This document shows, piece after piece, positions 13,987 through 39,098 of a DNA stretch of 64,000 bases (positions within the stretch are counted from its first letter, which is position 1; each line of letters starts with the position of its first letter). The translations under genes were made by a program, and so were the position numbers. Under the pieces are notes generated by a model. It was not told the DNA's origin. It did no database searches and saw nothing but the letters and a program-made list of their open reading frames with translations. Source of the stretch: Phycisphaeraceae bacterium (lineage in GTDB: Bacteria; Planctomycetota; Phycisphaerae; Phycisphaerales; Phycisphaeraceae); contig OY771506.1 in NCBI GenBank assembly GCA_963674705.1, forward strand, positions 1,856,001-1,920,000. The letters run 5' to 3'.

Positions 13987-14007
13987 TATCCAACCCGATT
14001 GAAACCA

Positions 14008-17254: not shown

Positions 17255-17284
17255 ACATCTCGAATATAGTGTGAATCATTTCAG

Positions 17285-17313
17285 TGTCCCCGCATGTCGT
17301 CGGGGACATTTTT
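17285..17313 (+). terminator. Rho-independent terminator closing the island replication operon
   Basis: TGTCCCCG-catgtcgt-CGGGGACA followed by a T-run. Confidence 0.7.
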
Positions 17314-18814: not shown

Positions 18815-18849
18815 ATGAACCTCCCAGAGATAGGGCGTTAAGATCAGGC

Positions 18850-19014
18850 GGCGTCCACAAAGAAAAGGGGGACGCCGATCCACAGTCGCCCGCAGGGCCT
18901 CCGCCAAGAGGCACACGAAACAACACATGGCCGACGCCCCCTTGCGGGGGCGCGGTGCCAGTGCTGCTTTCGTGAATCAAGGGCCTGGGGGCCCAGGTTG
19001 GCGGATTCCTGCGG
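18850..19014 (-). ncRNA. Candidate structured RNA/leader of unknown family
   Basis: Nested stems: 18890-18907 with 18998-19014, and 18914-18926 with 18961-18974. CGCCCCC-GCAA-GGGGGCG GNRA hairpin on the minus strand. CCTGGG/CCCAGG and GGCGTCC/GGACGCC hairpins. Confidence 0.5.
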
Positions 19015-19231
19015 TGCAGACTGATACTCGCGCATCAACTCGGTTGTCTACGGGGTTAATGACCCCGCCATAGTTCGAACTATCTCCCCTCATGATCGTC
19101 CATACTAGCCTCATGTCAATCTGATCTTCGATATAGACAATAACCGACATTATATAGCAACTACATGCCAATATTGACTTTACGTACTCGGCTAGGTTTG
19201 GTAACTTGTCTTTAGTCTATGGGGATAGCAG

Positions 19232-20188: not shown

Positions 20189-20195
20189 GCTATCC

Positions 20196-22316: not shown

Positions 22317-22326
22317 GGGGATATAC

Positions 22327-23457: not shown

Positions 23458-23948
23458 ACAATACGTGTTGATTTAGTCATGGACTTTACGCTGATAGGAA
23501 CATACCAAGCAGACATTCTTTTATCCCAACACCTCGCGCCCAAAAATTCAAGCCATGTAAACTCATGAATTGATTCTACTGTCATTTCTTTACCCAGACG
23601 GACTACTAGCAGGTATTCGAATAGTTGACGGTTGGGAGAATCAGGATCTGGATAGATTGTTCCAGTCTTTTTACCCTTCCAAATAGTCTTGATTGAGTAT
23701 CGATCTCCATTGCGCGACAAGGCATCGACATTCTTGGTGCCAGTTGGTGCGGCCTGTAGGTTGGGCAGGCCCGGCGTCTTCCTAAAATGTTCAATTGCAC
23801 CCTTTTCCCCAATATCTCCTACTGAGAAAGCAATGCCACGCTTACGCATTTCGACTTCTAATGCCGCCCTAAGAGCGATTAGTTCGTCATCTGAAAGAGT
23901 GGGCAGTTTGCCTTTGAACATGGGATGCTGGGTTGATGTGCTCTTCAT
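23454..23948 (-). CDS. Putative PD-(D/E)XK restriction-endonuclease-like protein
   Basis: GDIGE...VDALSRNGDRYSIK pattern; sits between the methyltransferase operon and vsr. Confidence 0.55.
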   Translation of the reverse strand: MKSTSTQHPMFKGKLPTLSDDELIALRAALEVEMRKRGIAFSVGDIGEKGAIEHFRKTPGLPNLQAAPTGTKNVDALSRNGDRYSIKTIWKGKKTGTIYPDPDSPNRQLFEYLLVVRLGKEMTVESIHEFTWLEFLGARCWDKRMSAWYVPISVKSMTKSTRIV

Positions 23949-23977
23949 ATTACGAGATTATAGTCACTGGTGGTGCA

Positions 23978-24394
23978 ATGAGTGATGTATTAACACGTGA
24001 GCAACGTAGTTATTGTATGTCGCAGATTCATGGCAAAGACACGAAACCAGAGATGGTGGTACGTCGTGTATTGCATGGGATGGGATACAGATATCGATTA
24101 CACGCTCCGGATCTACCAGGCAAACCTGATATAGTATTTCGTAGTAAGCGGAAGATCGTATTTGTTCATGGGTGCTACTGGCATAGACACACCTGCAAAT
24201 ATGGGAAAGTGGAACCGAGATCAAGGCAAGCATTCTGGCTTGATAAGTTCGCGGCTACGATTGAGCGCGATAGGGCAGTAATCCACAACCTTAGACGTGA
24301 TGGTTGGAAGGTTCTGGTTGTGTGGGAGTGCCAGACGAAAATCCAGAAGTTGGATGAGCTACAGCGTCGATTAGATCGCTTTCTCGGTGAGTAG
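23978..24394 (+). CDS. vsr: Very short patch repair endonuclease
   Basis: MSDVLTREQRSYCMSQIHGKDTKPE, LPGKPDIVF, FVHGCYWH, FWLDK, GWKVLVVWEC. Confidence 0.95.
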   Translation: MSDVLTREQRSYCMSQIHGKDTKPEMVVRRVLHGMGYRYRLHAPDLPGKPDIVFRSKRKIVFVHGCYWHRHTCKYGKVEPRSRQAFWLDKFAATIERDRAVIHNLRRDGWKVLVVWECQTKIQKLDELQRRLDRFLGE

Positions 24395-24427
24395 CTGAAC
24401 TGAACCTAGTTGATGGAGAAGGTGGTT

Positions 24428-24625
24428 TCAGTGTAGAGGAATGCTGAATAGTGCCACTCCAGACTCTAAGGCATCATTATCAGCATATTCACACACAACC
24501 TCATCTGACATGGCGACCACTACTCCATCGGTTCGTCGAAATACAACAAGCCATACGTCACCACCGCTCTGCCAGACGTCACCGCCCAATACATCTGCAA
24601 CTGCTTGTGCTTGATCCTCATCCAT
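24428..24625 (-). CDS. Small hypothetical protein
   Basis: 65-aa acidic ORF with protein-like composition (WQSGGDVWLV); no recognised motif. Confidence 0.5.
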   Translation of the reverse strand: MDEDQAQAVADVLGGDVWQSGGDVWLVVFRRTDGVVVAMSDEVVCEYADNDALESGVALFSIPLH

Positions 24626-24734
24626 ATCAAGGGCCTTTCACTTAATACGGAAGACTATACAGAATGTAATTGTGGTAATCAATGGAATGCAATATAACCT
24701 TTAGATGCGGCGACTGTGGACTTATCGTAGAGTT

Positions 24735-25343
24735 ATGAACACGAAACGCCGTTATCCAATTGAGGTGCTTACCCCCCAAGAATCATCGACCTTGATAAGC
24801 GCAGTCCGAGGTCACGGAGCATCTGCCATACGAAATCGTGCCCTGATCACGACCTTATACCGGTCTGGGCTGCGGATCAGTGAAGCATTGGACCTTGAGC
24901 CCAAGGATCTGGACGCCCAGCAGGGTTCGATTCGTGTCTGCCGCGGCAAGGGTGGAAAGACTCGCGTTGTGGGAGTTGATCCGGGAGCGGTCGCGATAAT
25001 AGAACGCTGGCTACAATGTCGTCATGAATACGGCATCACTGGCTCGGCGCCTTTGTTTTGCACCTTGTGTGGTGACACGCTATCAGCGTCCTACGTGCGT
25101 AAGATGATCAAGCGATATGCTAGTAAGGCGGGCATCGTCAAGCGTGTACACCCACACGGGCTGCGCCACACGCACGCGGCGGAATTGTGTGCCGAAGGCG
25201 TTCCGATCAATGTCATCAGCAAGCAGCTCGGACACAGCAATATCTCGACCACTAGTCAATACATCGATCACATTGCCCCAAGGCAGGTAATTGAGGCCAT
25301 GCAACAGCGTGCTTGGGTTTGTTTCTCTCAAGAGAAAATCTAA
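24735..25343 (+). CDS. Short tyrosine recombinase (catalytic domain only)
   Basis: RNRAL, SGLRISE (R), GKGGK (K), HPHGLRH, LGH, TSQY; ~200 aa with no N-terminal binding domain. Confidence 0.88.
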   Translation: MNTKRRYPIEVLTPQESSTLISAVRGHGASAIRNRALITTLYRSGLRISEALDLEPKDLDAQQGSIRVCRGKGGKTRVVGVDPGAVAIIERWLQCRHEYGITGSAPLFCTLCGDTLSASYVRKMIKRYASKAGIVKRVHPHGLRHTHAAELCAEGVPINVISKQLGHSNISTTSQYIDHIAPRQVIEAMQQRAWVCFSQEKI

Positions 25344-25357
25344 GAACACACAGATTT

Positions 25358-26233
25358 TCACTCACCATCTCCCTTGTTGTGCTTGATAAAGTCAATTCGC
25401 CCACCGGTTTCGGTAGGGGTCCAACAACAATCGCGCCCAACGCCAAGCCAACCAATGTCAAGACGATTTGTGGCATGTGGATTATGGCAAATAAGAATAT
25501 CTGTACCAAGCGATTCCGGGTGATTGTATGGGTCGGCATATGCGAATATGACGGCACTGATACCGCTATGCCGCTCTTCAAGAAATAACCTTGAGCTAAT
25601 CCTCGCCCCATAGGCCTTTACCATGTCACGCTGCTCTTGATAATCTTCCTTTACTACCTCCAAAGTTTCTCTATCAAGCGTAACCTGCGGCCACCCTCCC
25701 CCATACAGCACCTGAGCAATGCGTGGAATGTTGAGTTCAGTAAATTTGTTTGGAATGAAACCTGAATTAATGGCAATTATACATACTGAGTCTGTGGAAA
25801 CCCAGCCATTGGACCAGTAGTTTTCATACTTGCGATATTTCGTTTCAAATGCTGAAGTGTATCTCAGCTTGACTTCCTCATGGGGCACATTGTGGACCTT
25901 TCTATCATTTTTATAATCAGGCACGCTATCAGGGCCGCTACCCATCGTTGGTGCTATGGACTCGATCCACATATGTCCCCCCTCATGTTTAATACAGAAG
26001 TCAGGTCCAGCTTGTCGTGGCCGCGCCTGTTGTGGAATGACAGGAATACCCTGCTGAACCAAAACGGCGCCTAGATACATTTCTGCATACCGCTGTGCGT
26101 GATGTTCATGGTAATTCTTCAGGAAATCACGCTCTGCGTAAGGCTCATATAGCTGCCATAAGTATTCCACGTGCTGGCGATCACCTTTGCGGGTGTACAG
26201 ATCTGAAATCCGCTCATCAGAAAGCAAGGGCAT
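25358..26233 (-). CDS. Hypothetical protein with PD-(D/E)XK-like motif
   Basis: GGAG RBS before ATG 26233; YAEMYLG...GPDFCI...MWIESIAP...IIAIN pattern. Confidence 0.6.
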   Translation of the reverse strand: MPLLSDERISDLYTRKGDRQHVEYLWQLYEPYAERDFLKNYHEHHAQRYAEMYLGAVLVQQGIPVIPQQARPRQAGPDFCIKHEGGHMWIESIAPTMGSGPDSVPDYKNDRKVHNVPHEEVKLRYTSAFETKYRKYENYWSNGWVSTDSVCIIAINSGFIPNKFTELNIPRIAQVLYGGGWPQVTLDRETLEVVKEDYQEQRDMVKAYGARISSRLFLEERHSGISAVIFAYADPYNHPESLGTDILICHNPHATNRLDIGWLGVGRDCCWTPTETGGRIDFIKHNKGDGE

Positions 26234-26320
26234 GTTACAACTCCAATAAGCCACATTACATTGGGATACTGCTAAGTGTAATTACTAAAAAGTTCATGTC
26301 GATTGAGCTGGGTACATATA

Positions 26321-26860
26321 TTAATTGTCTTGAGGAAAGAATAATGTTGGGTCCGCATCTTGGTCATTATTTGGATTGATCGATATGACTTCATCGAGAT
26401 CAAAATAAAACACACGCTCTGATACAATCCGATGCTTAATCTTGAAGTTCTTCAGCATCTTCTTAAGCGTACGGACATCACAGTAGAACCAGTTTTTAGC
26501 GGCATGTCTGATGCTCACAGGGCGAGTAGATCTCTCTGGACAGGTAGACGCTCGATTCATATGGGCCACCTGGATACACCATTGCCCAAGGCTTTTTGCG
26601 GATTCGACACACTCTGAGCAAGAGAATCCTATGGGCATAGGCGGGGCTGTAATCGGATCACTTCCGAAGAACATTCGGTATATCTTGTGGGCCTCAATGA
26701 AGAGGTCTGCGCATTCCTTTGCTGCTTGGCGACGAATGCTTGCCTTGTCATTGTGGAGCCTTTCTAGGATGTGGGCCAACTCTGTCGCCATGAGTCTTGG
26801 CCGATCTCTTTTTCTTTGTATCAACAACCTGAAACCTTCTACGGTGAGCCCCTTAGGCAT
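26321..26860 (-). CDS. Protein with C-terminal Xis-like winged HTH, translationally coupled to the integrase
   Basis: TAATG overlap with the integrase stop; C-terminal VSIRHAAKNWFYCDVRTLKKML...VFYFDLDEV. Confidence 0.6.
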   Translation of the reverse strand: MPKGLTVEGFRLLIQRKRDRPRLMATELAHILERLHNDKASIRRQAAKECADLFIEAHKIYRMFFGSDPITAPPMPIGFSCSECVESAKSLGQWCIQVAHMNRASTCPERSTRPVSIRHAAKNWFYCDVRTLKKMLKNFKIKHRIVSERVFYFDLDEVISINPNNDQDADPTLFFPQDN

Positions 26861-28137
26861 TATCCATTCCTTTCTGCAAGTTCTATCGCTTGGTTTAGGT
26901 TCGTCTGGGCGTAAATCTGGGTGGTTTCTATCTTGCTGTGTCCAAGTAACACCGAAGCGGCTTCGACGCCATGACGCTGGCGTATGTCTGTGGCGAATGA
27001 GTGACGAAGCTGGTTCGGGTGCCAATGCTGAGGGGGCTTCCATCGGCTTAGTTCTTTTCGTTGGTCAGGTGTCAACTCCTTTCTTGGAATCTGGTTGAGC
27101 GTAGGGTGCGGGAAGACCGTGCGGATAGCTCGACGTATGGCCTGGGCATAGGACACTGTTGTGTACTGGCCATTGGGCTTTCGTCGCGGTTTCAATTTGG
27201 ATCGGTCTTGTTGTGACGGTTGGACTTTACTCTTGCGGCGCCGCCGTAGTTGTTTCTTACGTTCGACCTCTGCTTCGTGAGGGCTGAACAGGCATGCGTC
27301 TACATCACGACCAATTATGAATGGCTCAATGATCTCTTTGGCCTTGGGACCTAGGGGGATGAAGCGTTTCTTTCCACGATGTGCGTTCTTGTGATCCTTC
27401 GGATGATATATCCACACGGATCGGCTGCGGTCGATATCGATAGCACGCATTACAACGACTTCACCCGGACGCATGCCTGTCAGTCGTTGCAGCTCGATCA
27501 TAGCCCAGACTTGGCGGGACACATGACTACGGATCGCATCCACGTGCTCCTCGGGAACTGGTTTGATCGGTTCGGATTCAGGTGCCGAAGTGCGGCCCCG
27601 CTGAAGATGATCGATGTCCTCGATATCCGCCCAGACATGGGGTGGCACATACTTGTGCTTCTTACCCCAGCGAAACACCCTTAGTAGGCGATCCATGTTT
27701 TGGTTGATGTATCTGCGGGACCACGGCTTCCCTGTCCGGGCATGTCTTTGACGCACCAATGCTTGTTGGGTCACTTCAAAGCGTGACAACGTGAACTCAC
27801 CGACAGGTGTATGACCGTACAACTTTCGCAGAACACGTAATGCGGGTTTGAAGTTCGCAGGCGTTCGATAGCGCTCGCTCGATAGCGCATCTTGCATGAA
27901 CGCAACCGCAAGTTCAGTGATCGTGATTGTGTCTGATGGATCAACCCGGATGTGTTGTCGATCATTCACCAACCATTCGGCTATCAGGCGATCGTATTCG
28001 GATTTGGAACGCGGATCGTCCCAATGCCCCAAATACATTCGCCTGCCGTTTAGAACGGTATATGCACGATCAGGGCGATTTTTATGTCGCTGTCGTCGAA
28101 AACTTGGGATGCGGGTCTGTGTGTTTCGGTCAGTCAA
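26860..28137 (-). CDS. int: Island integrase (tyrosine recombinase)
   Basis: TGMRPGE, HKNAH, HPNQLRH, LLGH, TQIY; planctomycete-type N-terminal AYTVLNGRRMYLG; probable TTG start at 28137 after GGAG (ORF open to 28200); next to the tRNA att site. Confidence 0.93.
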   Translation of the reverse strand: MTDRNTQTRIPSFRRQRHKNRPDRAYTVLNGRRMYLGHWDDPRSKSEYDRLIAEWLVNDRQHIRVDPSDTITITELAVAFMQDALSSERYRTPANFKPALRVLRKLYGHTPVGEFTLSRFEVTQQALVRQRHARTGKPWSRRYINQNMDRLLRVFRWGKKHKYVPPHVWADIEDIDHLQRGRTSAPESEPIKPVPEEHVDAIRSHVSRQVWAMIELQRLTGMRPGEVVVMRAIDIDRSRSVWIYHPKDHKNAHRGKKRFIPLGPKAKEIIEPFIIGRDVDACLFSPHEAEVERKKQLRRRRKSKVQPSQQDRSKLKPRRKPNGQYTTVSYAQAIRRAIRTVFPHPTLNQIPRKELTPDQRKELSRWKPPQHWHPNQLRHSFATDIRQRHGVEAASVLLGHSKIETTQIYAQTNLNQAIELAERNG

Positions 28138-28319
28138 GGCGGCGCTCCAGGCCGACCAAACGTATCCATGGATACGTTCAGCGGGTCTTGTCGCGGCCAC
28201 CCGGGCTAACCGGATGCATCTGAGGTGATCGTCACACCGTCGAGAAGTGGCTCACTAAGTGATTGTCATTCCACCCTTTAACTCTTTGGCAGTGGGCTTC
28301 TGCACTTCATGTCAAACAA

Positions 28320-28391
28320 AGCGGGTGATGAGATTTGAACTCACGACATTCACGTTGGCAACGTGACGCTCTACCACTGAGCTACACCCGC
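28320..28391 (-). tRNA. tRNA-Gly(GCC)
   Basis: GCGGGTGTAGCTCAGTGGTAGAGCGTCACGTTGCCAACGTGAATGTCGTGAGTTCAAATCTCATCACCCGCT folds as a cloverleaf with anticodon GCC; CCA not encoded. Confidence 0.96.
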
Positions 28392-28664
28392 GTGGTGGGT
28401 TGAGTTACACATTCTATCGAGACTGACGAGCGGTTCAAGTCTGGGGCCGTGGTTCGCGCATTGGCTTCGAAAGATGTCAATATCAGCCCCGTTCTCATTA
28501 CTTCTCAGCGTTGGTCTAGCTGACAGGAATCATTCATTGATACTCCATATAGTCCATTTTTCACGAGTTATCCACCTCATATAGGGGTTTTCGGCGTGGA
28601 ATATGGATTTTGCACTTGTAGTTGTTGCTTTGCGGACAGGATGGTAGTAAGTTCTTAGGCAGAA

Positions 28665-28910
28665 CCCACAGGTGCGTGGTGGTCGGCAGAATAAGCTGCC
28701 GGGGCCACGTGAAAAGGGAAGTGGGGTGCTCGCAACCGGACTTTTGTTATCCCTGGTTGTGAAACTCCCCCGCGGACGCGCCGCCGTATTGGGTGGCCTG
28801 ACCTGAATCGTCGGGCCGGCGTCTTGCCGAATGAGCCACTGATGGGCCTGCAACGGGCCTGTTGGGAAGGCCGGCAAGATGTAAACCCTAAGCCGGAAGA
28901 CCTGCCTGAA
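28665..28910 (+). promoter_or_regulatory. Cobalamin (AdoCbl-class) riboswitch
   Basis: AGGTGC...AAAAGGGAAGTGGGGTG...AAACTCCCC...CGCCGCCGTA...GCCACTG...GGGAAGG...AAGCCGGAAGACCTGCC (B12 box); upstream of B12-binding-type genes. Confidence 0.9.
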
Positions 28911-29070
28911 AGGGTGCCGATGGTGTCCTCGCGAACGGGATGCTCGGGCAGCTTCCGCGACGTCGAGACCCCCTCGCCGACCCCGCCCATGCCCAAGCCA
29001 GCTTCGTGAGGACGGACATTCTTTTTGTTCGTCGAGGGGTGCCCTGCGCGAATCGGGGCGAGGAGACACG

Positions 29071-30120
29071 ATGTTGGTTAGATCACGGATGGTGTTCAGT
29101 TGGTTTGCCGCGGCCGGCGCCTGCACAGCGATGTGTGTTACGCCGGCAGATGCTGCGCGGTATGCGGATGTACTCGGCTACTTCGAGCCGGGGCAAAACG
29201 TGGATGTTGTCTACGGCTCAGACCCGCTTGAGTTGTATGACAATCCCCAAGCGGCGCTGGGCGGGCCGGGCGTAGAAGTTCCGTTATCGCAGGGCACGTT
29301 GACGCAGATCGTTTCGCTCGGTGGTTGGACGGACGATGCAAGCAGCGGCACAAATGGTCGCACGACCGGCCTGGTTGTGGGGTTCAGCACCGAAGTCTTG
29401 AACGGCGAAGGGGATGACCTGCTCATCGTCGGCAACGCACCCTACGACTTTGTTTTTTACGAGCCGGGCTTTGTTGAGGTGGCGATCGAATCGGATGGCG
29501 GCGGCGCGACAGCAGACGGCTGGCAGGATGAGACCTTCTACCTGCTTAAACCGGGCAATTACGATCTGATTGCAGACCCGCGCACTTCTTCAAACGCGAT
29601 CGGTATCACCACGAATCCCGACTTCAGCCTGAATTACGCTTCACCGTTTGATGATGACAAGAATCTGCCGGGCTACTTTGACATCACAAACGGCGGAGAT
29701 GTCTTCGATCTGGATGACGTGATCGATGCAGCGGGCAATGCGGTTTCGCTCGAAAGCATCGCTTATGTTCGTCTGCGCTCGGTGAGTGATTCGGATTTCC
29801 CGTTCGGATCGTACTTTGCACCGGAGGTGGATTACCTGGAAGTAATCGAGCAACAGGGTGATCTGGATGGCAATCGCTTTGTCGGGCTGAGTGATCTGGA
29901 TGTTGTCTTAGCATCGTGGAACCAGACCGTGCCGGTGGGATCGCTACTTAACGGCGAGTTGACACACGACGGCTTTGTCGGCTTGGATGACCTGGATGTT
30001 GTGTTGGCGAATTGGAATAGCAATACCTCGCCGACTTCCAGCACTGCTGTGCCAGAGCCCGCGGTTCTTACAGCCATGTTCCCGACTTTATTTGTTTTGA
30101 TCTCACGCCGCTCGAAGTGA
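29071..30120 (+). CDS. PEP-CTERM surface protein with BtuH-like (cell-surface B12-binding-type) domain and dockerin-like repeat
   Basis: Signal peptide; EPGQ...VSLGG...VVGF...NGEGDDLLIVGN...EPGFVEV...GDVFDL pattern; GDLDGNRFVGLSDLD repeat pair; VPEP+TM+RR tail. Confidence 0.75.
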   Translation: MLVRSRMVFSWFAAAGACTAMCVTPADAARYADVLGYFEPGQNVDVVYGSDPLELYDNPQAALGGPGVEVPLSQGTLTQIVSLGGWTDDASSGTNGRTTGLVVGFSTEVLNGEGDDLLIVGNAPYDFVFYEPGFVEVAIESDGGGATADGWQDETFYLLKPGNYDLIADPRTSSNAIGITTNPDFSLNYASPFDDDKNLPGYFDITNGGDVFDLDDVIDAAGNAVSLESIAYVRLRSVSDSDFPFGSYFAPEVDYLEVIEQQGDLDGNRFVGLSDLDVVLASWNQTVPVGSLLNGELTHDGFVGLDDLDVVLANWNSNTSPTSSTAVPEPAVLTAMFPTLFVLISRRSK

Positions 30121-30166
30121 TTGAGCGCGATGATAATTTTCTTATTCAATGTTGAGGAGAGATAAC

Positions 30167-30913
30167 GTGAAAACGATCATGATGTTGGCAGTTAGCGCCC
30201 TATTGACACAAAACGCGACCGCGACGGTTGTGGATTTCGACGAGTTGAATCCGGCGGATCGTCCTTTGTATGGCCCGGCCAACCCGGGTTTCGTATCCAA
30301 GGGCGTGACATTGGGTGGCGGATTTTACGGCGGCTGGACCTACTCCAATGACAGCGATACGACAACCGCTGGTTTCACCAACCAGTACGCTGCATACACA
30401 GGTACGGATGTCAGCGGTTCGGGGAATTACGGCATCGCATACAACACATCCATCATCGATCTTCCGGCCGGGCAGACACCCGCTTCCATCCAACTGACAA
30501 ACACAACTTATGCGGCACTGTCGATGCTCGATGGCGATAGCTACGCCAAGCAATTCGGCGGCGAAACAGGTGATGACCCGGATTACTTCGATGTCACATT
30601 CACCGGTTTTGCAGAAGCCGGTGCAACGGGATCTGAAACTGGGTCGGTGACCTTCTGTTTAGCGGATTACACCTTCACTGATAACTCGCTCGATTACGTC
30701 GTGGATACCTGGCAATTGCTGGATCTGTCGCCTCTAGGTAACGCGGCATCGATCTCTTTGAGTTGGGAATCAACAGATGTCGGCAGCTACGGGATTAACA
30801 CGCCGACGTATGTCGCGGTTGACGAATTGGTGTTGGTGCCCGAACCGATGGTGATGACATCGATGTTAGTTGCTACAGGTCTTATTGGGATGCGGCGCCG
30901 CCGCGTCGATTAA
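30167..30913 (+). CDS. DUF4465 (BtuJ-like) PEP-CTERM protein
   Basis: GAGGAG RBS before GTG 30167 (ORF open from 30149); GWTYSN..D.TTAGFTNQY, TNTTYAALSM.DGD.YAK.FGG, W..LDLS.LG, S.D.G.YG.NTP.Y.A.D; VPEP tail. Confidence 0.88.
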   Translation: MKTIMMLAVSALLTQNATATVVDFDELNPADRPLYGPANPGFVSKGVTLGGGFYGGWTYSNDSDTTTAGFTNQYAAYTGTDVSGSGNYGIAYNTSIIDLPAGQTPASIQLTNTTYAALSMLDGDSYAKQFGGETGDDPDYFDVTFTGFAEAGATGSETGSVTFCLADYTFTDNSLDYVVDTWQLLDLSPLGNAASISLSWESTDVGSYGINTPTYVAVDELVLVPEPMVMTSMLVATGLIGMRRRRVD

Positions 30914-30928
30914 CCGTTGAGGCACCCC

Positions 30929-30970
30929 GGTCGCGGTCGGGTTAGTGGGAACCCGACCGCGACCTTTTTT
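30929..30970 (+). terminator. Strong Rho-independent terminator
   Basis: Perfect 15-bp stem GGTCGCGGTCGGGTT/AACCCGACCGCGACC followed by T6. Confidence 0.85.
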
Positions 30971-30994
30971 GTACCGTTCATTTATGAGTGATTG

Positions 30995-31834
30995 ATGACA
31001 GGACAACATAACAACACGCAAGACAGTTGCACGCGAGCGTTCACGCTGATCGAACTGCTTGTCGTGATATCGATTGTTACGGTGTTGCTCGGGATTCTGT
31101 TGCCTGCTTTAGGTAGTGCGCGAGAGACCGGCCGGGGCGCGGTGTGCCTGTCGAACCTGAGGCAACTCGTCACGGCAAACGCTGCCTATGCACAGGATAA
31201 CGGTGGCTACTACGTCCCCGCCGCATTGGATATCTACACAAACAACCTCCAGCGCTGGCACGGCAGACGTAATACGGACGGCTCAGGCACGGACGAGGAC
31301 AAGACATTCGATCCGACACGCGGACCCTTGGTCGACTACGTGGGCTATCAGGGTGAAGTCCGCTATTGCCCTTCGTTTGAGGATCAACTCGATTACGATG
31401 CGCCCGGGTTCGAGGTCGGCACCGGCGGGTATGGCTACAACGGTTCATACATCGGTGGGCGCTGTGATTTGTATGGCACCAACGGCAAGTCCGCGCTCAA
31501 TACCGCACGAGTGGATGATGTCACGCTGCCAACCGAGACGGTTATGTTCACCGATGCAGCGTTTTATAAGATTGTTTCGGGACAGACGAACATCATCGAA
31601 TATTCATTCGCCGAAACGCCTTTCGTACAGCAATTCCCTACCGAGGTCTCGACTTGGAGGCATTCACCATCGATCCACTTCAGGCATCACACCAGCACAC
31701 ATGCTGCCTGGGGCGATGGGCACGTTGATTCACAAGCGATGGACTTCACGCACCCACTGTTCGAAGATTTTTATAAGAACCTGGGTTTTGGCTGGTTCGG
31801 ACCCGAATCGAATGAGCTGTTTGACCTGTATTGA
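30995..31834 (+). CDS. Prepilin-type N-terminal cleavage/methylation protein, DUF1559/H-X9-DG family
   Basis: [39 protein letters not shown]-terminal [12 protein letters not shown]. Confidence 0.92.
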
Positions 31835-32353
31835 TCAGTCCGACTCGGCGGCTTTCAGCTTTTCTTTCGGTGGGAGAGTGATCAGGTCACTATCCTCAAA
31901 CAAATGTACTGTGCCGTCCCCGGTGGTTTCTACACGCGGCCGTAAGCCGTGCAGCCACAAGTACAGCGTGCCGTCATGCTTGGTTGCTCTTTCACGGATC
32001 AGCACCGCATCGGGCTTGCCGTAGTTCTCGGGTAAATACTCGTAGTCGGGACCCAGTAAGCATTTATCAAAAGCCATCGCCCCGGTGTCGTGATTGATCA
32101 GTTCTTCCAAGCTCTGCGGTGGTCGACCCACTTCATTTTTAAATGCGATGATGTAGCCCAGTAAATTTCTTTGGTGATGAGCACAGTCGTACACATCCTG
32201 TACAGCACGCCCGCTCGCAGAGTCGCTTTCAAACAGGTTTAGTACATCCACCGGTGTCCAGAACAGGTAAAACTTCAACCCCACGAAAAACAGTACTACG
32301 ACAATAATGCTGCTCAGAGCAATACGGCCCCAGTATCGTTTTCGCTCGTGCAT
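31835..32353 (-). CDS. Membrane-anchored hypothetical protein with pseudopilin-like body
   Basis: N-terminal TM segment; CAHHQRNL...PPQSLEEL...C...YEY...KHDG resembles the body of DUF1559/GspG-type proteins but has no prepilin cleavage site. Confidence 0.6.
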   Translation of the reverse strand: MHERKRYWGRIALSSIIVVVLFFVGLKFYLFWTPVDVLNLFESDSASGRAVQDVYDCAHHQRNLLGYIIAFKNEVGRPPQSLEELINHDTGAMAFDKCLLGPDYEYLPENYGKPDAVLIRERATKHDGTLYLWLHGLRPRVETTGDGTVHLFEDSDLITLPPKEKLKAAESD

Positions 32354-32485
32354 GCCTAACCTTAGATCAAACAATGACCCGAAGCAATAGAGATGTATCT
32401 GTTTTGCGGTTTCCCTGGAATCAATGGATGGCATCAAAGTGAGGCGCCTGCTGCGCTTGGATTGAGAACGCTCTAATTGGTTTTA

Positions 32486-32941
32486 TCAATTTTCAATAGA
32501 TAAGAACGTGGCTTCAGCGTCGGCGAGCAGGTCATCATTAAAACGCAGTTCAGCCTTAAGCTGATGGCGTTTGCCATCGGTGTCCTCTAGCCACGCACGG
32601 ACTTGCAGTGCTTGATCGATTGGCACGGGTCGGCGGAAGCGTGTGTGAAGCACGGCGGTGACAGCCTTTGTGTTCTGTGCAAACAGACACTGCGTCATCG
32701 CGCCGTCCAGTAAGGCGCTGACGATCCCGCCGTGCAATTGACCTGTGAAGCCGGCCATCCAGGGCTTGGGCTCGAATCGTGAGCTGACGCCGCCGTGATC
32801 GTCTGCCTTGCAGTTGAGATTCAGGCTGAACGGGTTGGCAGGATCACAGACCACGCATGCGGGGTGCTGCGTCTGGCGATGATGATCCAGTGCTCGCTGG
32901 CGATCTTGCTTAGTGTCGGCAGTGTTTGTGCTCGTGTTCAT
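32486..32941 (-). CDS. PaaI-family hotdog-fold thioesterase
   Basis: CVVC..NPFSL, GFTGQLHGGIVSALLDGAM, TAVLHTRFRRPVP. Confidence 0.88.
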   Translation of the reverse strand: MNTSTNTADTKQDRQRALDHHRQTQHPACVVCDPANPFSLNLNCKADDHGGVSSRFEPKPWMAGFTGQLHGGIVSALLDGAMTQCLFAQNTKAVTAVLHTRFRRPVPIDQALQVRAWLEDTDGKRHQLKAELRFNDDLLADAEATFLSIEN

Positions 32942-33278
32942 GATCGGCACACGCGTTGGGGTGTTCTGCTTCGGGATTAGCCAGGTAATGGCGTACGGCA
33001 TCCTCGGGGGTTTTGCCCGAGTGTCCGGCCGAAACGGTGATGCCGTATTCCGACAGACGCTGTTGGGCTCCGCCACCGATCCCACCGGCGACGACACATT
33101 GTACGGCCATTTCATTCAGCCAGTTGGGCAGGCTTTCACAGCCGGAGGCGTTGCGTGGAACGATCCGTGGCCGTTCTATAGTCCCGGTTTCAGGATCAAC
33201 CTCGCACAGGAACACACTATCACACTTGCCGAAGTGAGTACAGAATTGGTCTTGGATTACGGGCGCAGCGATCAGCAT
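32910..33278 (-). CDS. NifB/NifX-family metal-cluster-binding protein with His-rich tail
   Basis: AAGGAA RBS; HFGKC, VVAGGIGGGA, LSEYGITV; tail CADHEHEHKHCRH. Confidence 0.85.
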   Translation of the reverse strand: MLIAAPVIQDQFCTHFGKCDSVFLCEVDPETGTIERPRIVPRNASGCESLPNWLNEMAVQCVVAGGIGGGAQQRLSEYGITVSAGHSGKTPEDAVRHYLANPEAEHPNACADHEHEHKHCRH

Positions 33279-33296
33279 GGCAAATTCCTTGGGGGG

Positions 33297-33323
33297 GATA
33301 CATCTATATATAAATAGTGTATC
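33297..33323. promoter_or_regulatory. Putative NikR-type operator upstream of the NifX-family gene
   Basis: GATACAT-N13-GTGTATC inverted repeat (6/7 match) with an AT-rich spacer. Confidence 0.5.
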
Positions 33324-33398
33324 AGTCTTAGATGGTCTCGGACGGGGCAGTTCTGCCCGACCTGCGATTGTCTCGCAGCGCAAGGCTGATGCCCCAAT

Positions 33399-33818
33399 TT
33401 ACTGCCGCAGTGACTTGCCGGTGGTTCCCGCTGAGAGTTTGGCAAGCAGCACACCTTTTTCCCGGCGGAGGCGATCCGCCAGGGCCTGGATCTGGTTCCC
33501 CTTGCCCTTGACCATAATCATTTCGGCACAGAGGTGCTCATCCAGGTGGACGTGCGTCGTCGCTAGGACCTTGCCGATGAAGTGGTGCTGGGAGTGGGTT
33601 AACCTGGCGCTGAGCCCGGGGGCATGGTGGTCGTAGATCAGCGTGATCGTGCCCAGCAGGACCTTGTTGGACTGCCACTCATCGTCGACCAGTTGATTGC
33701 GGATCAGGTCGCGGATGAATTCCGAACGGTTGCGGTAGTCACTTTTACCGACCGCTTTTTCCAGCTTATCGAATAACGATTGCTCGATAGAGACGGTGAA
33801 TCGCACCAACTCTGACAT
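33399..33818 (-). CDS. nikR: Nickel-responsive regulator NikR
   Basis: RHH domain LVRFTVSI...YRNRSEFIRDLIR; GTITLIYDHH; HVHLDEHLCAE Ni-binding site; AAGGAG RBS. Confidence 0.95.
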   Translation of the reverse strand: MSELVRFTVSIEQSLFDKLEKAVGKSDYRNRSEFIRDLIRNQLVDDEWQSNKVLLGTITLIYDHHAPGLSARLTHSQHHFIGKVLATTHVHLDEHLCAEMIMVKGKGNQIQALADRLRREKGVLLAKLSAGTTGKSLRQ

Positions 33819-34018
33819 CGCAGGCTCCTTATACCGGATGAGCGACATCGTAGGAGATAAGCAGCCCGCGTCAATACTAAGTTAAAGCTTTTCTAAACTA
33901 TGCGGGGGTTTTATGCCGGGCAAATGTATTTGAATGTTTCAAAAGTATTGGTGACGCACACCCGAGGTATGCCCTGCGCGAAGTAACAGATGAAGTAACA
34001 ATACTTTTTGGAGCCGTT

Positions 34019-34618
34019 CTAGATAATTGTCGCTTCCAGAAAGAACAGGTCTTCACGATCAATCCGTTGCACTTGCTGGAGACGGGCTTGCTCCAGCAGG
34101 GGACGCCATTCATCGCCGACCGGCAGCAGGTCGCCCTGCACTGGGCCCTCCATACCGGCATGGAAGCTGTTGATATGGTCGCTGCCTGCCAGGTGCATGA
34201 CGATGAGTCGGCCGTCACCCGTCAGAGCACGTGAGCAATTCCGTAACGCGGCCGCCTGATCCCTGAAGTGCGGGAAACTATGCAGGCACAAAATGGTGTC
34301 GAAGCAACGGATACCGGGCGGATCCAGGCAGATATCCATGCACTGAAAATCGGCATCGATCTGTTTATCCACCGCCTGGATGATCATTTTTGGAGAAAAA
34401 TCGATCGCGGTCACACGACCCGGGGCAACCTGGCTAGCCAACCAGCTAGTGGTTTTCCCTGTGCCGCAGCCGACCTCGAGCAGGTCCGTGTCGGGCTTCA
34501 GATTTAACAGTTTTCTTTGCTTGATCAGGCCTTCGGTCATCGAGTCCCTGGAAGGATGGATGCCGTCCCATCCCTCAGCAAGGCCGTCAAAAAACGCGAT
34601 GCGGGGGTCAGAATTCAT
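34019..34618 (-). CDS. Class I SAM-dependent methyltransferase
   Basis: FFDGLAEGWD, LEVGCGTG, IDFSPKM, SFPHF. Confidence 0.88.
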   Translation of the reverse strand: MNSDPRIAFFDGLAEGWDGIHPSRDSMTEGLIKQRKLLNLKPDTDLLEVGCGTGKTTSWLASQVAPGRVTAIDFSPKMIIQAVDKQIDADFQCMDICLDPPGIRCFDTILCLHSFPHFRDQAAALRNCSRALTGDGRLIVMHLAGSDHINSFHAGMEGPVQGDLLPVGDEWRPLLEQARLQQVQRIDREDLFFLEATII

Positions 34619-34674
34619 ACGATTTTGAAATTTGTAATACTGGAAGGATAACACTAATATACAGATCGTATGAT
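34614..34674. promoter_or_regulatory. Two tandem putative NikR operators in the divergent promoter
   Basis: TTCATAC-N13-GTAATAC (34614-34640) and ATAACAC-N13-GTATGAT (34648-34674); half-sites resemble GTATGA/GTGTTA NikR half-sites. Confidence 0.6.
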
Positions 34675-34740
34675 CTTTTATGTGCCCGGGCAAACCGTGT
34701 CGTTTTACCCGGGCACTTCACGCCCGGGAAGGAGAAACCG

Positions 34741-35985
34741 ATGCCCCGCTGGATGATTGCCATTCTTATATCTACCACCATCCTCAGCCAGTCTGTTATC
34801 GCTTTTGCGGATACGGTTTGGGACACGGTGCCTTACATCACCCACAGCGAATACCAGGCCGTCAACGCAGACGGAAGCGCCGCTTACGACGGCACATTCC
34901 CCGTTCGTCTGATTGGTGTTGTCTTGAACAATACCGAAGACTGGCTCGACCCGACGCCAGGCTATACCTCCAGCTACGTCGCTTTCGCCATGGGCGGCCA
35001 GGCGGAGGTTTACTTCCAGGCGGTTGATCTCGACGGAACCGCATGGGACACCGACACGACTTCCGCATTCAATGACCACGGCGGAACCGCCGCATGGATG
35101 GGGCAGAACTACGGCAACCGGCCTTTCATCGGCGACCCCGCGTTTAACTACACCGATGCGCAGTGGACCAGTGAGCTTGCGCGTCTCGGTTTGTATGGTG
35201 GTGACGGTGTGACCGAACCGCTGCGCGCCGGGGACTTGATCGAAGTACGCATCAGAGCCGGCCTGCACTACGCCGGCAAATACAACGTCAATGAACAACA
35301 CTCCATCGATCCGTCCGTCGACTTCGAGATCGTCGTGCTTCAGCAAGGCTACGGCCTGCCCGATGCGACACAGATCACGCTCAGCGATCTGAAGGACGCG
35401 AACGACTTGTTCATCTTCGACTCAACGCGTCAGAGCGGTGGCGAGTTGTACCAATCAACGTTGGTCGAACTGCAGGATGTCTGGATCCAATCAGCAGCAA
35501 CCTGGCAGACGGATAGCACGCTTGTCGTGACCGATGGCGTCCGGACCTTCGATGTTCAACTGTGCCTCAACGATAGCTTCGATGGCACGGAATTGTTCGC
35601 CGTGGGCGAGCACTTCAACGTCACCGGCATCCTCGATCAGTCAGCCAGCAGCGGTGTATACAGCACCGATGGTTACCAGTTGCTGGTTATGAACGCTGAC
35701 AGCTTCAGCGCCGCCGCTTTGAGCGGTGACTATAACGATGATGGTTTCGTAGGTCTCGGCGATCTGGACATTGTGCTAAGTCACTGGAATCAGACCGTTA
35801 CGCCGGGTGATGTGCTCGGTGGCGATAGTAGTGGTGACGGTTACGTCGGATTGGATGATCTGGATCCGGTGCTGGAAAACTGGAACGCCGGCACGCCACC
35901 AACTACAACAGTTGTACCGGAACCCGCGACAGCGTTGTTTTTGCTAGCAGCATCCATCGGTGCGCTGCGTCGACGCCGATCCTGA
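34741..35985 (+). CDS. PEP-CTERM surface protein with unknown N-terminal domain(s) and dockerin-like repeat
   Basis: AGGAGA RBS; signal peptide; GDYNDDGFVGLGDLD and GDSSGDGYVGLDDLD repeats; VPEPATALFLLAASIGALRRRRS. Confidence 0.85.
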   Translation: MPRWMIAILISTTILSQSVIAFADTVWDTVPYITHSEYQAVNADGSAAYDGTFPVRLIGVVLNNTEDWLDPTPGYTSSYVAFAMGGQAEVYFQAVDLDGTAWDTDTTSAFNDHGGTAAWMGQNYGNRPFIGDPAFNYTDAQWTSELARLGLYGGDGVTEPLRAGDLIEVRIRAGLHYAGKYNVNEQHSIDPSVDFEIVVLQQGYGLPDATQITLSDLKDANDLFIFDSTRQSGGELYQSTLVELQDVWIQSAATWQTDSTLVVTDGVRTFDVQLCLNDSFDGTELFAVGEHFNVTGILDQSASSGVYSTDGYQLLVMNADSFSAAALSGDYNDDGFVGLGDLDIVLSHWNQTVTPGDVLGGDSSGDGYVGLDDLDPVLENWNAGTPPTTTVVPEPATALFLLAASIGALRRRRS

Positions 35986-35999
35986 ATTGAGTTTATGCC

Positions 36000-36644
36000 A
36001 TGAAGCCCCGGCCCGCCCAACACGGCTTTACGCTCATCGAGCTGCTTGTGGTCATCTCGATTGTGGCGCTACTGATCAGCCTGTTGCTGCCCGCCTTATC
36101 CGGCGGGCGGCGGGCGGCGGTGCGTGTCCGGGCACACGCGGACCTGCGCTCGATCACCCAGGCGCTTGAGGTCTATCGCAACGATAACAAAGACGATCTG
36201 CCGCCAACCCGTTTTTCATGCAGTTCGCGGACCGCGTACGAGTTGCCGATCGAGCTGATGCAGTACCTGCCGGACAGGAAGCGGGACCTGGTTGATATCA
36301 TCGAGATGCCCGATGTGTACAGCGAAAAGGGTGAAAGCTACCGCTACCGTGCGGTGGGTGATGCGATCCTCAATGAGTACACCTGGCTGAAGAACAGGGC
36401 CTCGCTTTGGGTGCCGGACGGTTTCCCTTACGATGAGCAGGAGACCGGTCAGTATTACTATGACCCGCAGCAGAGCCCCGTGCGTTACGCGGTGTACAGC
36501 CCCGGGCCCGACCCGGGCTCGACGTTCTTCGATATCCCCGGCCGACTACCCGTACCCGAAAAGTACTGGTTGCGGAGCCAGTCTGATGCCGGTGTTGTGG
36601 TGCATATGGAAGACCAATACAGACAGATGCACCTGAGCCCGTAA
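36000..36644 (+). CDS. Type IV prepilin/GspG-like protein
   Basis: [33 protein letters not shown]...LP; YAVYSPGPD. Confidence 0.88.
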   Translation: MKPRPAQHGFTLIELLVVISIVALLISLLLPALSGGRRAAVRVRAHADLRSITQALEVYRNDNKDDLPPTRFSCSSRTAYELPIELMQYLPDRKRDLVDIIEMPDVYSEKGESYRYRAVGDAILNEYTWLKNRASLWVPDGFPYDEQETGQYYYDPQQSPVRYAVYSPGPDPGSTFFDIPGRLPVPEKYWLRSQSDAGVVVHMEDQYRQMHLSP

Positions 36645-36656
36645 GTAGAGATCGTT

Positions 36657-37478
36657 ATGTTCAGCGCCGGCCGTTTTCTTCTGTTACTCCTGTTTCTATG
36701 TTCATTGCTTGGCTGCGGTGACCAGGCTCGACAGCCCGCCACGGACTTTGTGGTGACCAGTTCCTATCTTGAATGTGCATTGAATGATGTGCTTGGTAAG
36801 CAGGCTGCTTGCCTCAGGCTCGCGGAGCCCGGCACGTGCCCGGGGCATTTTGATATGCGGCCGAGCCAGTTGCAGGCGATCCGCGAGGCGCGGTTGCTGC
36901 TGAGGCTGGACTTCCAGGCCTCGCTCGATCGTAAGCTGGCGGACCTGCCCGGCAGCGACCTGAAGATCGTCGCCGTTCATATCGATGGTGGCGTGTGTGA
37001 GCCCGCCAGTTATATGCAGGCATGCAAGCAGGTCGCCGATGCACTGGTCGATTGTGGTTTGCTGTCGGCTGAAGCGGCCGAGCATAGATTGATGGAGATC
37101 GAGCAACGTCTGGCGGAGCGTCAGGCTGATTGGCTGAAGCAGATGGAGCCGTTGCGTGGGACGCATATCGTGACCAGCACGCACCAGGAAAGGTTCTGCC
37201 GCTGGCTTGGATTGGAAGTTGTCGGCACGTTCAGCGCGATGGACAGTGCCCGCGTCGGAGAGGTCAACGACACCATCGTGGCCGGCGACCGTGAAGGGGT
37301 GAAGCTTGTCATCGCCAATCACCCGGAAGGCCGTACCGCCGCCGACGCCTTGGCACACCGCCTGGATGCGAAGGTTTGCGTCTTCAGCAACTTCCCGTTG
37401 ATGCGTGACGGGCAGGATACATTCGATGCGATGATCCAGGACAACATCACAGCTCTGTCCAAGGTAAGCCAGCCTTGA
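36657..37478 (+). CDS. Metal ABC transporter substrate-binding lipoprotein (ZnuA/TroA-like)
   Basis: Lipobox LLGC; CPGHFDMRP; STHQERF; first of three adjacent ABC genes. Confidence 0.8.
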   Translation: MFSAGRFLLLLLFLCSLLGCGDQARQPATDFVVTSSYLECALNDVLGKQAACLRLAEPGTCPGHFDMRPSQLQAIREARLLLRLDFQASLDRKLADLPGSDLKIVAVHIDGGVCEPASYMQACKQVADALVDCGLLSAEAAEHRLMEIEQRLAERQADWLKQMEPLRGTHIVTSTHQERFCRWLGLEVVGTFSAMDSARVGEVNDTIVAGDREGVKLVIANHPEGRTAADALAHRLDAKVCVFSNFPLMRDGQDTFDAMIQDNITALSKVSQP

Positions 37479-38287
37479 ATACGCCGGCCATTGATATCCA
37501 GGGTTTGCGTGTCCACGCGGGGCAACGGCCGATCCTTTCGATCGACAGACTCGAAGTCGATGCGGGCGAACTGATCGGCGTGCTCGGCCCCAACGGTGCA
37601 GGCAAGACGACGCTCTTGCGGAGCATCCTCGGCATGCAGCGACACATCGAAGGGGCTGTGGGCGTGAATGGTTCATCGATGGTTGATACACCCGAAAGTC
37701 TGCGGGCCAAGGTTCGCAGGCGCATCGGTTATGTCCCGCAGTTATTACCTGTCCCAAGTGAAACACCCTTGACCGTGCGCGATGTCATCCTGCTCGGTAG
37801 AAGTTCCGCCAAGGGCTTTTTCCGTACGACCGACAGGCAGGACAGGCTGGCGGTGGAAACGTGGATCGAACGTTTGAACCTGTCGTCGCTGGCGGATCGT
37901 GGTTACGGCGAAGTCTCCGGCGGTGAGCAACGCAAGACCTTGATCGCCCGCGCGATGGTGCGCGAACCCAGCCTGATGCTGCTGGATGAACCGACTGCCA
38001 ACCTCGACCTTGGCTGGCGTGAACAGATTGTTAACCTGATCGATCAACTGCATCACGAATACAACATCACGGTTCTGCTGGTCTGCCATGAGCTTGAAGT
38101 CTTGCCCGCCGGCTGCTCGCGTCTGATTCTGCTGGAGACTGGCGCGATAGCCGACGAGGGATTGCCGCAAACCGTGCTGACATCGCAGATGGTCGAACGA
38201 TTCTATGGGCCCGGCCTGGTGCTGCAGCAGCAGGGCAGGCGTTGGGCGGTGGTTCCGGATGCGAAAGTGGGGGCGTCGCATGCTTGA
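37475..38287 (+). CDS. Metal ABC transporter ATP-binding protein
   Basis: GPNGAGKT, IGYVPQ, VSGGE, LLDEPT, H-loop; TTGA overlap with the binding-protein gene. Confidence 0.92.
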   Translation: MNTPAIDIQGLRVHAGQRPILSIDRLEVDAGELIGVLGPNGAGKTTLLRSILGMQRHIEGAVGVNGSSMVDTPESLRAKVRRRIGYVPQLLPVPSETPLTVRDVILLGRSSAKGFFRTTDRQDRLAVETWIERLNLSSLADRGYGEVSGGEQRKTLIARAMVREPSLMLLDEPTANLDLGWREQIVNLIDQLHHEYNITVLLVCHELEVLPAGCSRLILLETGAIADEGLPQTVLTSQMVERFYGPGLVLQQQGRRWAVVPDAKVGASHA

Positions 38288-39098
38288 CCTCGTATTCTGG
38301 GCACCGGTGTTGGTTGCGGGGTTGGTTGCGGGGGCATCCAGTGGTTTATTGAGCGTGTACATCGTTGGGATGCGTGTTCCGTTTCTGGGGATCTGTATTT
38401 CACACGCTGCGCTGGCGGGCGCGGTGTTCGGCGCGTTGTTTGGATTGGAAGGGCAGGCGTTGATGCTGCCCGCATTAGGTGCATCTGTATTGACCGCGTT
38501 GGCGTTGGGGCTGGCGTCGCCGAACCGTGTGCGGATGGATGACAACATCGTGATGGGTTTGCTGCTCTCATTAACGATGGGGTTGGCGTTCCTGGGGTTT
38601 GGACTATTTAGCGTATTCGGGCGCAGTGATAATGAGGTACGCTCGCTATTGTGGGGCAGCCTGACGTTCTGCGGCTGGGATGATGTATTGTGGATGTGCA
38701 TCAGTGCTGGGGCATTGGTGTTCTTTGTGCTGCTGTTTGGTAAGGAGATGCGTGCGATCCTCTTTTCGAGAGTGGATGCCGAAGCGTGCGGCGTGCGCGT
38801 CGGATTCATCTGGCCCATCTTCCTGGTTCTTGCCGCCATGTTGCTGACGGTGAACTTCCAGACCGTCGGCGGGTTGATGATCTACAGCCTGATTACCAAC
38901 CCGGCCGCCGCGGCGTTCCAACTGACGCGCAGTGTAAACAGGGCGATGCTCCTTTCTATCGTACTGGGCGCAGTAAGTGGCCTTGGAGGTTTCTTGCTGT
39001 CGGCATGGACCGACCTGCCCAGCGGCGCGGTCATCGTGTTGCTTTCCTCGCTGCTCGTGGCGCTAGCGGCGGGTTGGCGATATCTGCGACGTAATTAG
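38280..39098 (+). CDS. Metal ABC transporter permease (ABC-3/ZnuB family)
   Basis: Multiple TM segments; ISHAALAG, LLWGS, AEACGV, VGGLMI..LITNPAAAA, DLPSGAVIV. Confidence 0.9.
   Translation: MLDLVFWAPVLVAGLVAGASSGLLSVYIVGMRVPFLGICISHAALAGAVFGALFGLEGQALMLPALGASVLTALALGLASPNRVRMDDNIVMGLLLSLTMGLAFLGFGLFSVFGRSDNEVRSLLWGSLTFCGWDDVLWMCISAGALVFFVLLFGKEMRAILFSRVDAEACGVRVGFIWPIFLVLAAMLLTVNFQTVGGLMIYSLITNPAAAAFQLTRSVNRAMLLSIVLGAVSGLGGFLLSAWTDLPSGAVIVLLSSLLVALAAGWRYLRRN

Follow-up and report, generated by a model that had tools for sequence, protein, structure and literature searches.

Two neighbouring gene cassettes of a planctomycete, in each of which a nutrient-sensing element is followed by surface proteins with a PEP-CTERM tail and by a prepilin-like protein, are the subject of this study. 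They lie on the plus strand, with five minus-strand genes in between, in a window of 64,000 nucleotides from a Phycisphaeraceae bacterium (assembly GCA_963674705.1, contig OY771506.1, positions 1,856,001 to 1,920,000 of the forward strand), and their place and gene order agree with the initial annotation of this DNA. Cassette 1 is linked to vitamin B12 by a cobalamin riboswitch, and cassette 2 to nickel by an operator of the NikR type. We strongly infer that both cassettes serve uptake. Each operon pairs predicted surface binders with a pilin of its own. Regarding the way in which they work, we see about an even chance that this pilin confers substrate specificity on a common type IV filament whose retraction carries B12 or nickel across the outer membrane. 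For the class Phycisphaerae, and probably for other bacteria of the Planctomycetes-Verrucomicrobia-Chlamydiae (PVC) superphylum, the wider proposal is a TonB-independent import in which dozens of interchangeable, sensor-induced prepilins and surface binders load B12, nickel and glycans on one retractile filament; this we hold with a confidence just short of even.

The proposed route would run as follows. Low B12 or low nickel would switch the operon on via the riboswitch or NikR, the elements themselves being present at the loci. Binders sorted by exosortase or tagged by a dockerin-like repeat would capture the nutrient, as relatives do for B12 and as is presumed for nickel. The processed pilin would then enter the filament of one PilB/PilT/secretin machine and dock the binder, as modelled for the nickel pair, and by analogy with DNA uptake the retraction through the secretin would take the cargo into the periplasm. 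An inner-membrane importer would finish the uptake, which may be an adjacent and interchangeable one for nickel and a BtuF/FecCD-like pair elsewhere in the genome for B12.

Composition of the two cassettes

The features of the two cassettes are given below, with positions in the window.

28655..28923, plus: cobalamin riboswitch (Rfam RF00174, 59.9 bits)
29071..30120, plus: BtuH-like predicted B12-binding protein of 349 amino acids, with signal peptide, BtuH-like domain, dockerin-like repeat and PEP-CTERM
30149..30913, plus: DUF4465 (BtuJ family) predicted B12-binding protein with PEP-CTERM (PF14717, E 7e-47)
30929..30970, plus: terminator-like hairpin between the binders and pilin 1, local and not conserved
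30992..31834, plus: B12-linked prepilin (pilin 1) of DUF1559/H-X9-DG type, single-copy subfamily (PF07963)
33399..33818, minus: NikR repressor (NF003381, 144.5 bits, above cut-off; start codon inferred, longest open reading frame to 33848)
34019..34618, minus: S-adenosylmethionine-dependent methyltransferase, divergent from cassette 2 (start codon inferred)
34614..34640, no strand: NikR-type operator, 27-bp imperfect palindrome (29.3 bits, the genome's best site)
34648..34674, no strand: weaker second NikR-type site (14.8 bits)
34741..35985, plus: secreted protein of 414 amino acids with two OB-fold-like domains, dockerin-like repeat and PEP-CTERM, predicted nickel or nickel-chelate binder
36000..36644, plus: nickel-linked prepilin (pilin 2), GspG-like pseudopilin fold, invariant Cys, no H-X9-DG motif
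36657..37478, plus: ZnuA-family solute-binding protein with conserved CPGHFD motif (PF01297)
37475..38287, plus: ATP-binding cassette (ABC) ATPase (PF00005)
38280..39098, plus: ABC-3 permease (PF00950; start codon inferred, longest open reading frame from 38205)

The riboswitch that heads cassette 1 is the sole RF00174 match in the 5.54-Mb genome. The initial annotation had placed a dockerin-like PEP-CTERM binder in both cassettes, which is correct as far as it goes; cassette 1 in fact holds two PEP-CTERM proteins, and the dockerin-like repeat occurs in the first only, the second being the DUF4465 protein. A PEP motif, a membrane helix and a basic tail are visible at the C-terminus of all three binders, and the genome has 3 exosortases. 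The DUF4465 protein scores 160.5 bits against PF14717 (cut-off 25), matches the B12-bound structure PDB 9hmu with E 4.5e-18 and retains in its HI loop the motif NTPTY (from residue 217), the family form being NTPAY with the B12-binding Tyr; it is thus a predicted B12 binder, with binding known for homologues. B12 binding is reported for eight DUF4465 members, one of them from Mucisphaera, in PMC13398666, the available part of which makes no mention of a pilin or of PEP-CTERM (here and below, papers are cited from the parts of their text that were available).

The 349-residue protein gave no Pfam match, and a single-sequence PDB search returned nothing below E 0.1. Its 54-sequence family profile matches PDB 8blw_B (E 7e-13) and 7biz_A (E 3e-5), which are probably BtuH-domain proteins, to judge by the spacing of the metal-site residues. 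Its invariant N95 and E104 align with the metal-site Asn and Glu of BtuH2, with the spacing given in PMC13616437, and the equivalents of BtuH2 N399 and E406 are invariant in 54/54 family members. The position of BtuH2 F401 is Pro in the window protein, and D522, S582 and E584 fall in poorly aligned parts. The only BtuF-like/FecCD pair of the genome lies away from cassette 1.

As for cassette 2, the initial annotation had counted a nickel sensor at its head, and this holds for the operator, not for the gene: nikR is on the minus strand with the methyltransferase gene intervening, and the element directly 5' of the nickel binder is the NikR-type palindrome. In a scan with a matrix built without the window locus, which took the place of an earlier narrow pattern that had matched only 8/39 loci, this operator scored 29.3 bits and the genome's next site 20.9, and its form agrees with the delta-proteobacterial NikR consensus of PMC545781. 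The binder reaches 16.5 against TIGR02595 for PEP-CTERM (cut-off 16) and is modelled with a predicted local distance difference test (pLDDT) score of 96.3 as two OB-like domains (Z up to 9.9, root-mean-square deviation (rmsd) 2.6, 90 residues aligned), with H161, E159 and D86 invariant. Its single-sequence PDB search gave no match below E 0.1, and an atlas search showed low recognition, with DUF5689 on 13-22% of members as a lead only. A nucleic-acid-binding role was considered for this protein and rejected, the OB-fold matches being at fold level only, which is no proof of function, and the context being nickel. The cassette continues into a metal importer of ZnuA, ATPase and ABC-3 type, as had been annotated, and two NiFe-hydrogenase-type large subunits are encoded in the genome.

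Both prepilins match PF07963 above cut-off, with a class III signal, a G/A-F cleavage site, Glu5 and a hydrophobic helix. Pilin 1 resembles the DUF1559 (PF07596) family and carries the H-X9-DG motif. The model of pilin 2 (pLDDT 94.7) has pilins as 8/8 of its matches with Z of at least 5, the best being EpsG (Z 7.7, rmsd 2.4, 95 aligned); Foldseek returned nothing for it below E 0.001. A hairpin between binder and pilin was tried as a further feature of the design and rejected, being found in 12/25 pairs of the own genome and in 32/109 and 37/207 controls; it occurs in 21/77 B12 loci and 9/46 nickel loci, with a T-run in 2 and 1 of them.

Several neighbouring features were noted besides. The inferred start codon of the methyltransferase (34019-34618, minus) overlaps a NikR-type site, and the enzyme might take part in the synthesis or modification of a nickel chelator. 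Downstream of nikR, at 32486-33383 on the minus strand, are NifB/NifX-family and thioesterase genes, which stand near the cassette in locus L067 too. The genome's second and third best NikR-type sites are at G000:C1:4139135 and 4148810, the former having a His-rich LarC-like gene at a distance of about 3 kb. A stretch of about 15 kb with lower GC content (13028-28341; 47.5% over 20196-28200) ends at tRNA-Gly(GCC), is flanked by a repeat comprising 22 or more bases of the 3' end of this tRNA gene and encodes two tyrosine recombinases and genes resembling a restriction/Vsr-type set; it is likely an integrated element with no relation to the cassettes.

Sensor linkage of the pilins across genomes

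PEP-CTERM genes and prepilins are both abundant here. Motif searches give 94 prepilins and 365 PEP-CTERM genes for this genome, and a PEP-CTERM gene stands directly before 24/94 prepilins, compared with 75/2391 other genes. The pairing is therefore common genome-wide, and two such pairs in the window mean little by themselves. What goes beyond chance is that each pilin belongs to a distinct, single-copy subfamily (237 bits for pilin 1 against 49 for the next match in the genome; 171.5 against 12.7 for pilin 2) whose link to the sensor is kept throughout the class. A chance pairing of two high-copy families, for which these copy numbers would speak, is refuted and keeps practically no probability, since the linkage is specific to subfamilies in three differently selected genome sets, in which most genomes have one riboswitch match. 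In the test by copy number, by which the proposal was to stand or fall in the initial annotation, the pilins track the sensor far beyond expectation.

The first of these sets was defined by DUF4465, which is found in 48/301 genomes of the class and 6/301 of the phylum. All 50 of the 50 DUF4465 genomes other than the own one have the riboswitch. By hand count it lies upstream in 46/51 DUF4465 loci, the 5 misses all being at contig ends, and a pilin adjoins DUF4465 in 47/51 (44 on the same strand, 3 divergent); two of the remaining four are cut by contig ends and two are without an adjacent pilin. The second set started from the pilin. A profile of the pilin body (E 1e-18) matched 179/301 class genomes, including one unpublished genome (G555) that enters into this tally only, and in the 60 best-scoring published genomes without DUF4465 a same-strand riboswitch lies within 6 kb upstream of 54/62 pilin matches, five of the eight misses being within about 3 kb of a contig end. 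The third set started from the riboswitch in genomes without a profile match. Of 122 such genomes 80 were searched and 72 had the riboswitch, which precedes a TonB receptor in 2 of them; both of these were left out of the count below, have no BtuH-like match and show weak pilin-profile matches only, none at the riboswitch. Among 40 riboswitch loci spread over genera, 34 have a prepilin as second or third protein gene, and the other six comprise one pilin-body match without the N-terminal motif, one locus cut by a contig end, two with a BtuH-like gene and no pilin, and two with other genes.

The binders at these loci vary. Among 86 pilin loci, which include 3 duplicate fetches, 73 have a BtuH-like protein, 46 have DUF4465 and some have beta-propellers; the riboswitch is directly followed by the pilin in 5 loci. 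Because the binders are interchangeable and the pilin can come first, the B12 pilin follows the nutrient and not one client protein. In a FastTree phylogeny 107/111 riboswitch-linked pilins form one clade (support 0.78) with none of 60 other pilins of the own genome inside, the four outside coming from three genomes outside the class; the riboswitch-linked pilins are likely one old lineage by this tree.

Besides, in three loci from two genomes outside the class (L062, L063 and L064), one or two cobalamin riboswitches are flanked by divergently oriented genes for DUF4465 and for a prepilin of another lineage, which suggests a second recruitment of a pilin to B12. In L192, L193 and others, pyrroloquinoline quinone (PQQ)-type beta-propeller proteins with dockerin tails stand between the BtuH-like gene and the pilin position and are possible further B12 binders.

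The nickel binder is present in 64/301 class genomes and the nickel pilin in 70/301. Every one of the 63 binder genomes other than the own one has the pilin, and in 62/63 it lies within 1.6 kb downstream of the binder. With leave-one-out scoring, a NikR-type 27-bp palindrome of at least 10 bits was found upstream of the binder in 37/45 loci and in 2/225 shuffles, 6 loci being dropped for lack of an anchor motif. Among 49 nickel loci, nikR occurs in 20, the methyltransferase in 13 and a ZnuABC-like ABC permease in 29; alternative or additional genes, from a scan of 103 of 123 neighbours, are CbiM(QO) in 4, FecB/FecCD-like genes in 2 and a cluster with AIRC and PP-loop domains that is presumably LarB/LarE-like. 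The tails of the nickel binders vary between PEP-CTERM and dockerin-like ends, the latter in many. The host falls in with metagenome-assembled genomes of Phycisphaeraceae (matches of 71% and 92% identity), and locus L002 has both cassettes in the order of the window. In L095 (G496:C32) both stand in a row on one strand: a riboswitch, a PEP-CTERM gene, a corrinoid adenosyltransferase, a BtuH-like gene and a B12-type pilin are followed by the whole nickel cassette and a porin.

The design of sensor, binder and pilin is not special to micronutrients. A LacI, GntR or XylR-type regulator stands directly before the cassette in 10/18 other PEP-to-pilin regions of the genome, often with glycoside hydrolases and in three with sodium-solute symporters (66/168 proteins of these regions were scanned). 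Within 6 kb of such a regulator are 23/71 family pilins, against 7.9% of random positions, and 25/42 regulators have a pilin at this distance, both counts being biased upward by a regulator set that was seeded from the PEP-to-pilin loci themselves. From this recurrence, the many prepilins of the family look like the part that sets specificity within a general uptake system. A related pulG-like pseudopilin with 67 homologues is reported from an alginate cluster of Verrucomicrobiota, among the alginate-induced genes (PMC13274419).

Other micronutrient sensors were looked for in the own genome. Scans with consensus sequences for Fur, Zur and ModE gave no convincing site before a pilin; the sole thiamine pyrophosphate (TPP) riboswitch candidate is below gathering score and precedes thiC, not a pilin, and 11 other loci of the genome have no Rfam match. 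A ModA-like solute-binding protein follows a PEP-CTERM/prepilin cassette at L159:8101-8904 (G000:C1 near 1523400), possibly as a molybdate link or as a chance neighbour.

Proposed import on a retractile filament and its alternatives

Modelling of binder and pilin as a complex, a check proposed at the outset, gave for the nickel pair a score of 0.69 against 0.01 for the best control, with paired alignments of 44 rows. Three runs have 85% or more of their contacts in common, and the partners reach a pLDDT of at least 86; the mark applied is reached by 116/157 solved and 2/215 mismatched pairs, counts that are only roughly valid for alignments of our own. Among the interface residues are the binder's invariant His161 and the pilin's Cys39, numbered as in the modelled pieces, which may together make up a metal site. 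That the nickel binder contacts its pilin is thus supported by a model only. The genome has 5 PilT-family ATPases above cut-off and 5 secretins. Sensor linkage, predicted complex and this machinery fit the pilin-based uptake first proposed, and the sugar-regulator loci extend it past the micronutrients to which it had been confined.

The slot of the TonB-dependent receptor was also examined. Comparing coordinates by eye, we found no TonB-receptor match inside the fetched B12 or nickel loci, as had been expected, and no BtuB-type receptor in the operon of cassette 1 or at 51 related DUF4465 loci; the single PF00593 match of the own genome is 2.5 Mb away, beside a sensor-type gene cluster. At least one TonB-receptor match is present in 29/50 B12-cassette, 40/63 nickel-cassette and 34/80 comparison genomes, so only a replacement at the level of the locus is supported. 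In 21/50 B12-cassette genomes there is no TonB-receptor match at all. We favour import on a retractile filament because the B12 pilin goes with the riboswitch and not with a particular binder, and because many of these genomes otherwise seem to have no way through the outer membrane for B12, which requires one.

A number of points weigh against this import. The anticorrelation with TonB receptors predicted by the initial annotation is not seen at genome level, and genome G088 combines a pilin cassette with a TonB receptor that lies 5.9 kb downstream of a second riboswitch. Loci L179 and L193 combine the riboswitch with a BtuH-like binder and have no pilin within about 7 kb, and in the window itself a 15-bp hairpin with a T-run, at 30929-30964, separates the DUF4465 gene from that of pilin 1. 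The filament assembly genes are not among the genes of either cassette. The tightest contacts of the modelled complex are in poorly conserved, variable loops, and the complex is compatible with import and export alike. Since each pilin family probably descends as a single lineage, the counts speak for conservation and not for many independent origins. For nickel, an OprB-type porin occurs in 6 loci by the scan of 103 of 123 neighbours, and hydrated Ni2+ could pass porins.

An unlikely alternative, and yet the one that survives best, is that the pilin is an export adaptor, a pseudopilin through which the PEP-CTERM binder would reach a type II secretion-like machine and so be displayed on the surface, the nutrient entering by an unlinked route. 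The GspG-like fold of pilin 2 and its predicted binding to the secreted protein itself agree with this, as does the PEP-CTERM gene directly before about a quarter of all prepilins (24/94), and PMC13274419 suggests that the type II secretion system of the strain studied there exports alginases. However, one B12 pilin lineage serves several unrelated binders and comes first after the riboswitch in five loci, most of the 365 PEP-CTERM genes have no directly following pilin (there are about 25 pairs), and B12 entry would stay unexplained for the 21 genomes without a TonB-receptor match.

Rather improbable is a static capture scaffold at the surface or in the periplasm, from which the nutrient would enter via porins or an unrecognised channel with no retraction. 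It would account for the porins at the six nickel loci and for the dockerin-like tail in place of PEP-CTERM in many nickel binders, and BtuJ is an extracellular reservoir in Bacteroides (PMC13616437). However, the own genome (96.6% complete) has no OprB match, and no recurrent channel gene was found among the clustered and scanned downstream neighbours of the B12 pilins. Moreover, B12 is too large for ordinary porins.

We give very little probability to a role of the pilin in sensing or adhesion under common regulation with uptake, for instance for attachment to B12 producers or metal-bearing particles. In Fimbriiglobus, type IV pili help cells to adhere to biopolymers (PMC11131199), and MUL2 of Akkermansia has been read as attachment (PMC13174399), but the near one-to-one inheritance of nickel pilin and binder (62/63), the place of the pilin after the binder and before the importer, and the direct contact of pilin and binder in the model all stand against it.

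Significance and comparison with known systems

Planctomycetes have few TonB receptors, and both their import of large molecules, said in PMC11131199 to use an unknown mechanism, and the role of their tens to hundreds of prepilin-like genes are open questions. If true, the import on a retractile filament would be a new way of crossing the outer membrane, would account for the great size of the DUF1559/H-X9-DG families and for uptake in planctomycetes, and would make the substrate range readable from pilin subfamilies. Both pilins are single-copy, their substrates are predicted, their switches are known and the assay is simple, so that the question can be tested without paralogue redundancy. 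The literature searched, which has few subscription journals and no supplements, yielded no account of prepilin cassettes under the control of a riboswitch or of NikR.

Cassette 1 is like the Btu relay of Bacteroides thetaiotaomicron (BtuJ/BtuH/BtuK/BtuG to BtuB to BtuFCD) in its cobalamin riboswitch and its BtuJ (DUF4465) and BtuH-like domains, and in related locus L015, probably also in L060, a BtuF/FecCD-type importer comes directly after the pilin. Unlike those of the relay, the binders here have PEP-CTERM or dockerin-like tails and are not lipoproteins, and a prepilin stands in the slot of BtuB. Pilin 1 falls in with the DUF1559 (PF07596)/H-X9-DG family, whereas pilin 2 is without the motif.

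In the type IV pilus DNA uptake of Neisseria, ComP is a substrate-binding minor pilin. The proposed import would share its principle, in which a minor pilin of given specificity belongs to a common retractile filament and cargo passes via the secretin; in contrast, a cofactor or metal would be carried here, the binder would be a protein apart from the pilin, the importer would be of ABC or energy-coupling factor (ECF) type, and there would be one pilin per nutrient, dozens per genome. The SusC/SusD polysaccharide utilization loci combine a sensor, a surface binder, an outer-envelope element, enzymes and an inner-membrane importer. The same layout is found here, with a prepilin where SusC stands.

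NikR-repressed operons, namely nikABCDE of E. coli and the delta-proteobacterial nikMNQO (PMC545781), resemble cassette 2 in NikR, in the 27-bp operator and, at some loci, in a CbiMQO-type importer, and cassette 2 has both the nikR gene and the predicted 27-28 bp inverted-repeat operator of a NikR regulon. They differ in that the leading genes here are a two-OB-fold secreted protein and a pseudopilin, and the importer is of ZnuA/ABC-3 type in the window and most commonly ZnuABC-like with a Cys/His motif. Within the PVC superphylum, the mucin uptake by MUL1/MUL2 of Akkermansia likewise depends on pili genes (reviews PMC12418764 and PMC13174399); MUL2 has PilM and an archaeal-like pilin with mucin as substrate, and no cassette of sensor, binder and prepilin is described in the available parts of these reviews. 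The parts of the two cassettes are thus from known families, and by membership criteria the whole is outside the Btu relay and the nikABCDE and nikMNQO operons.

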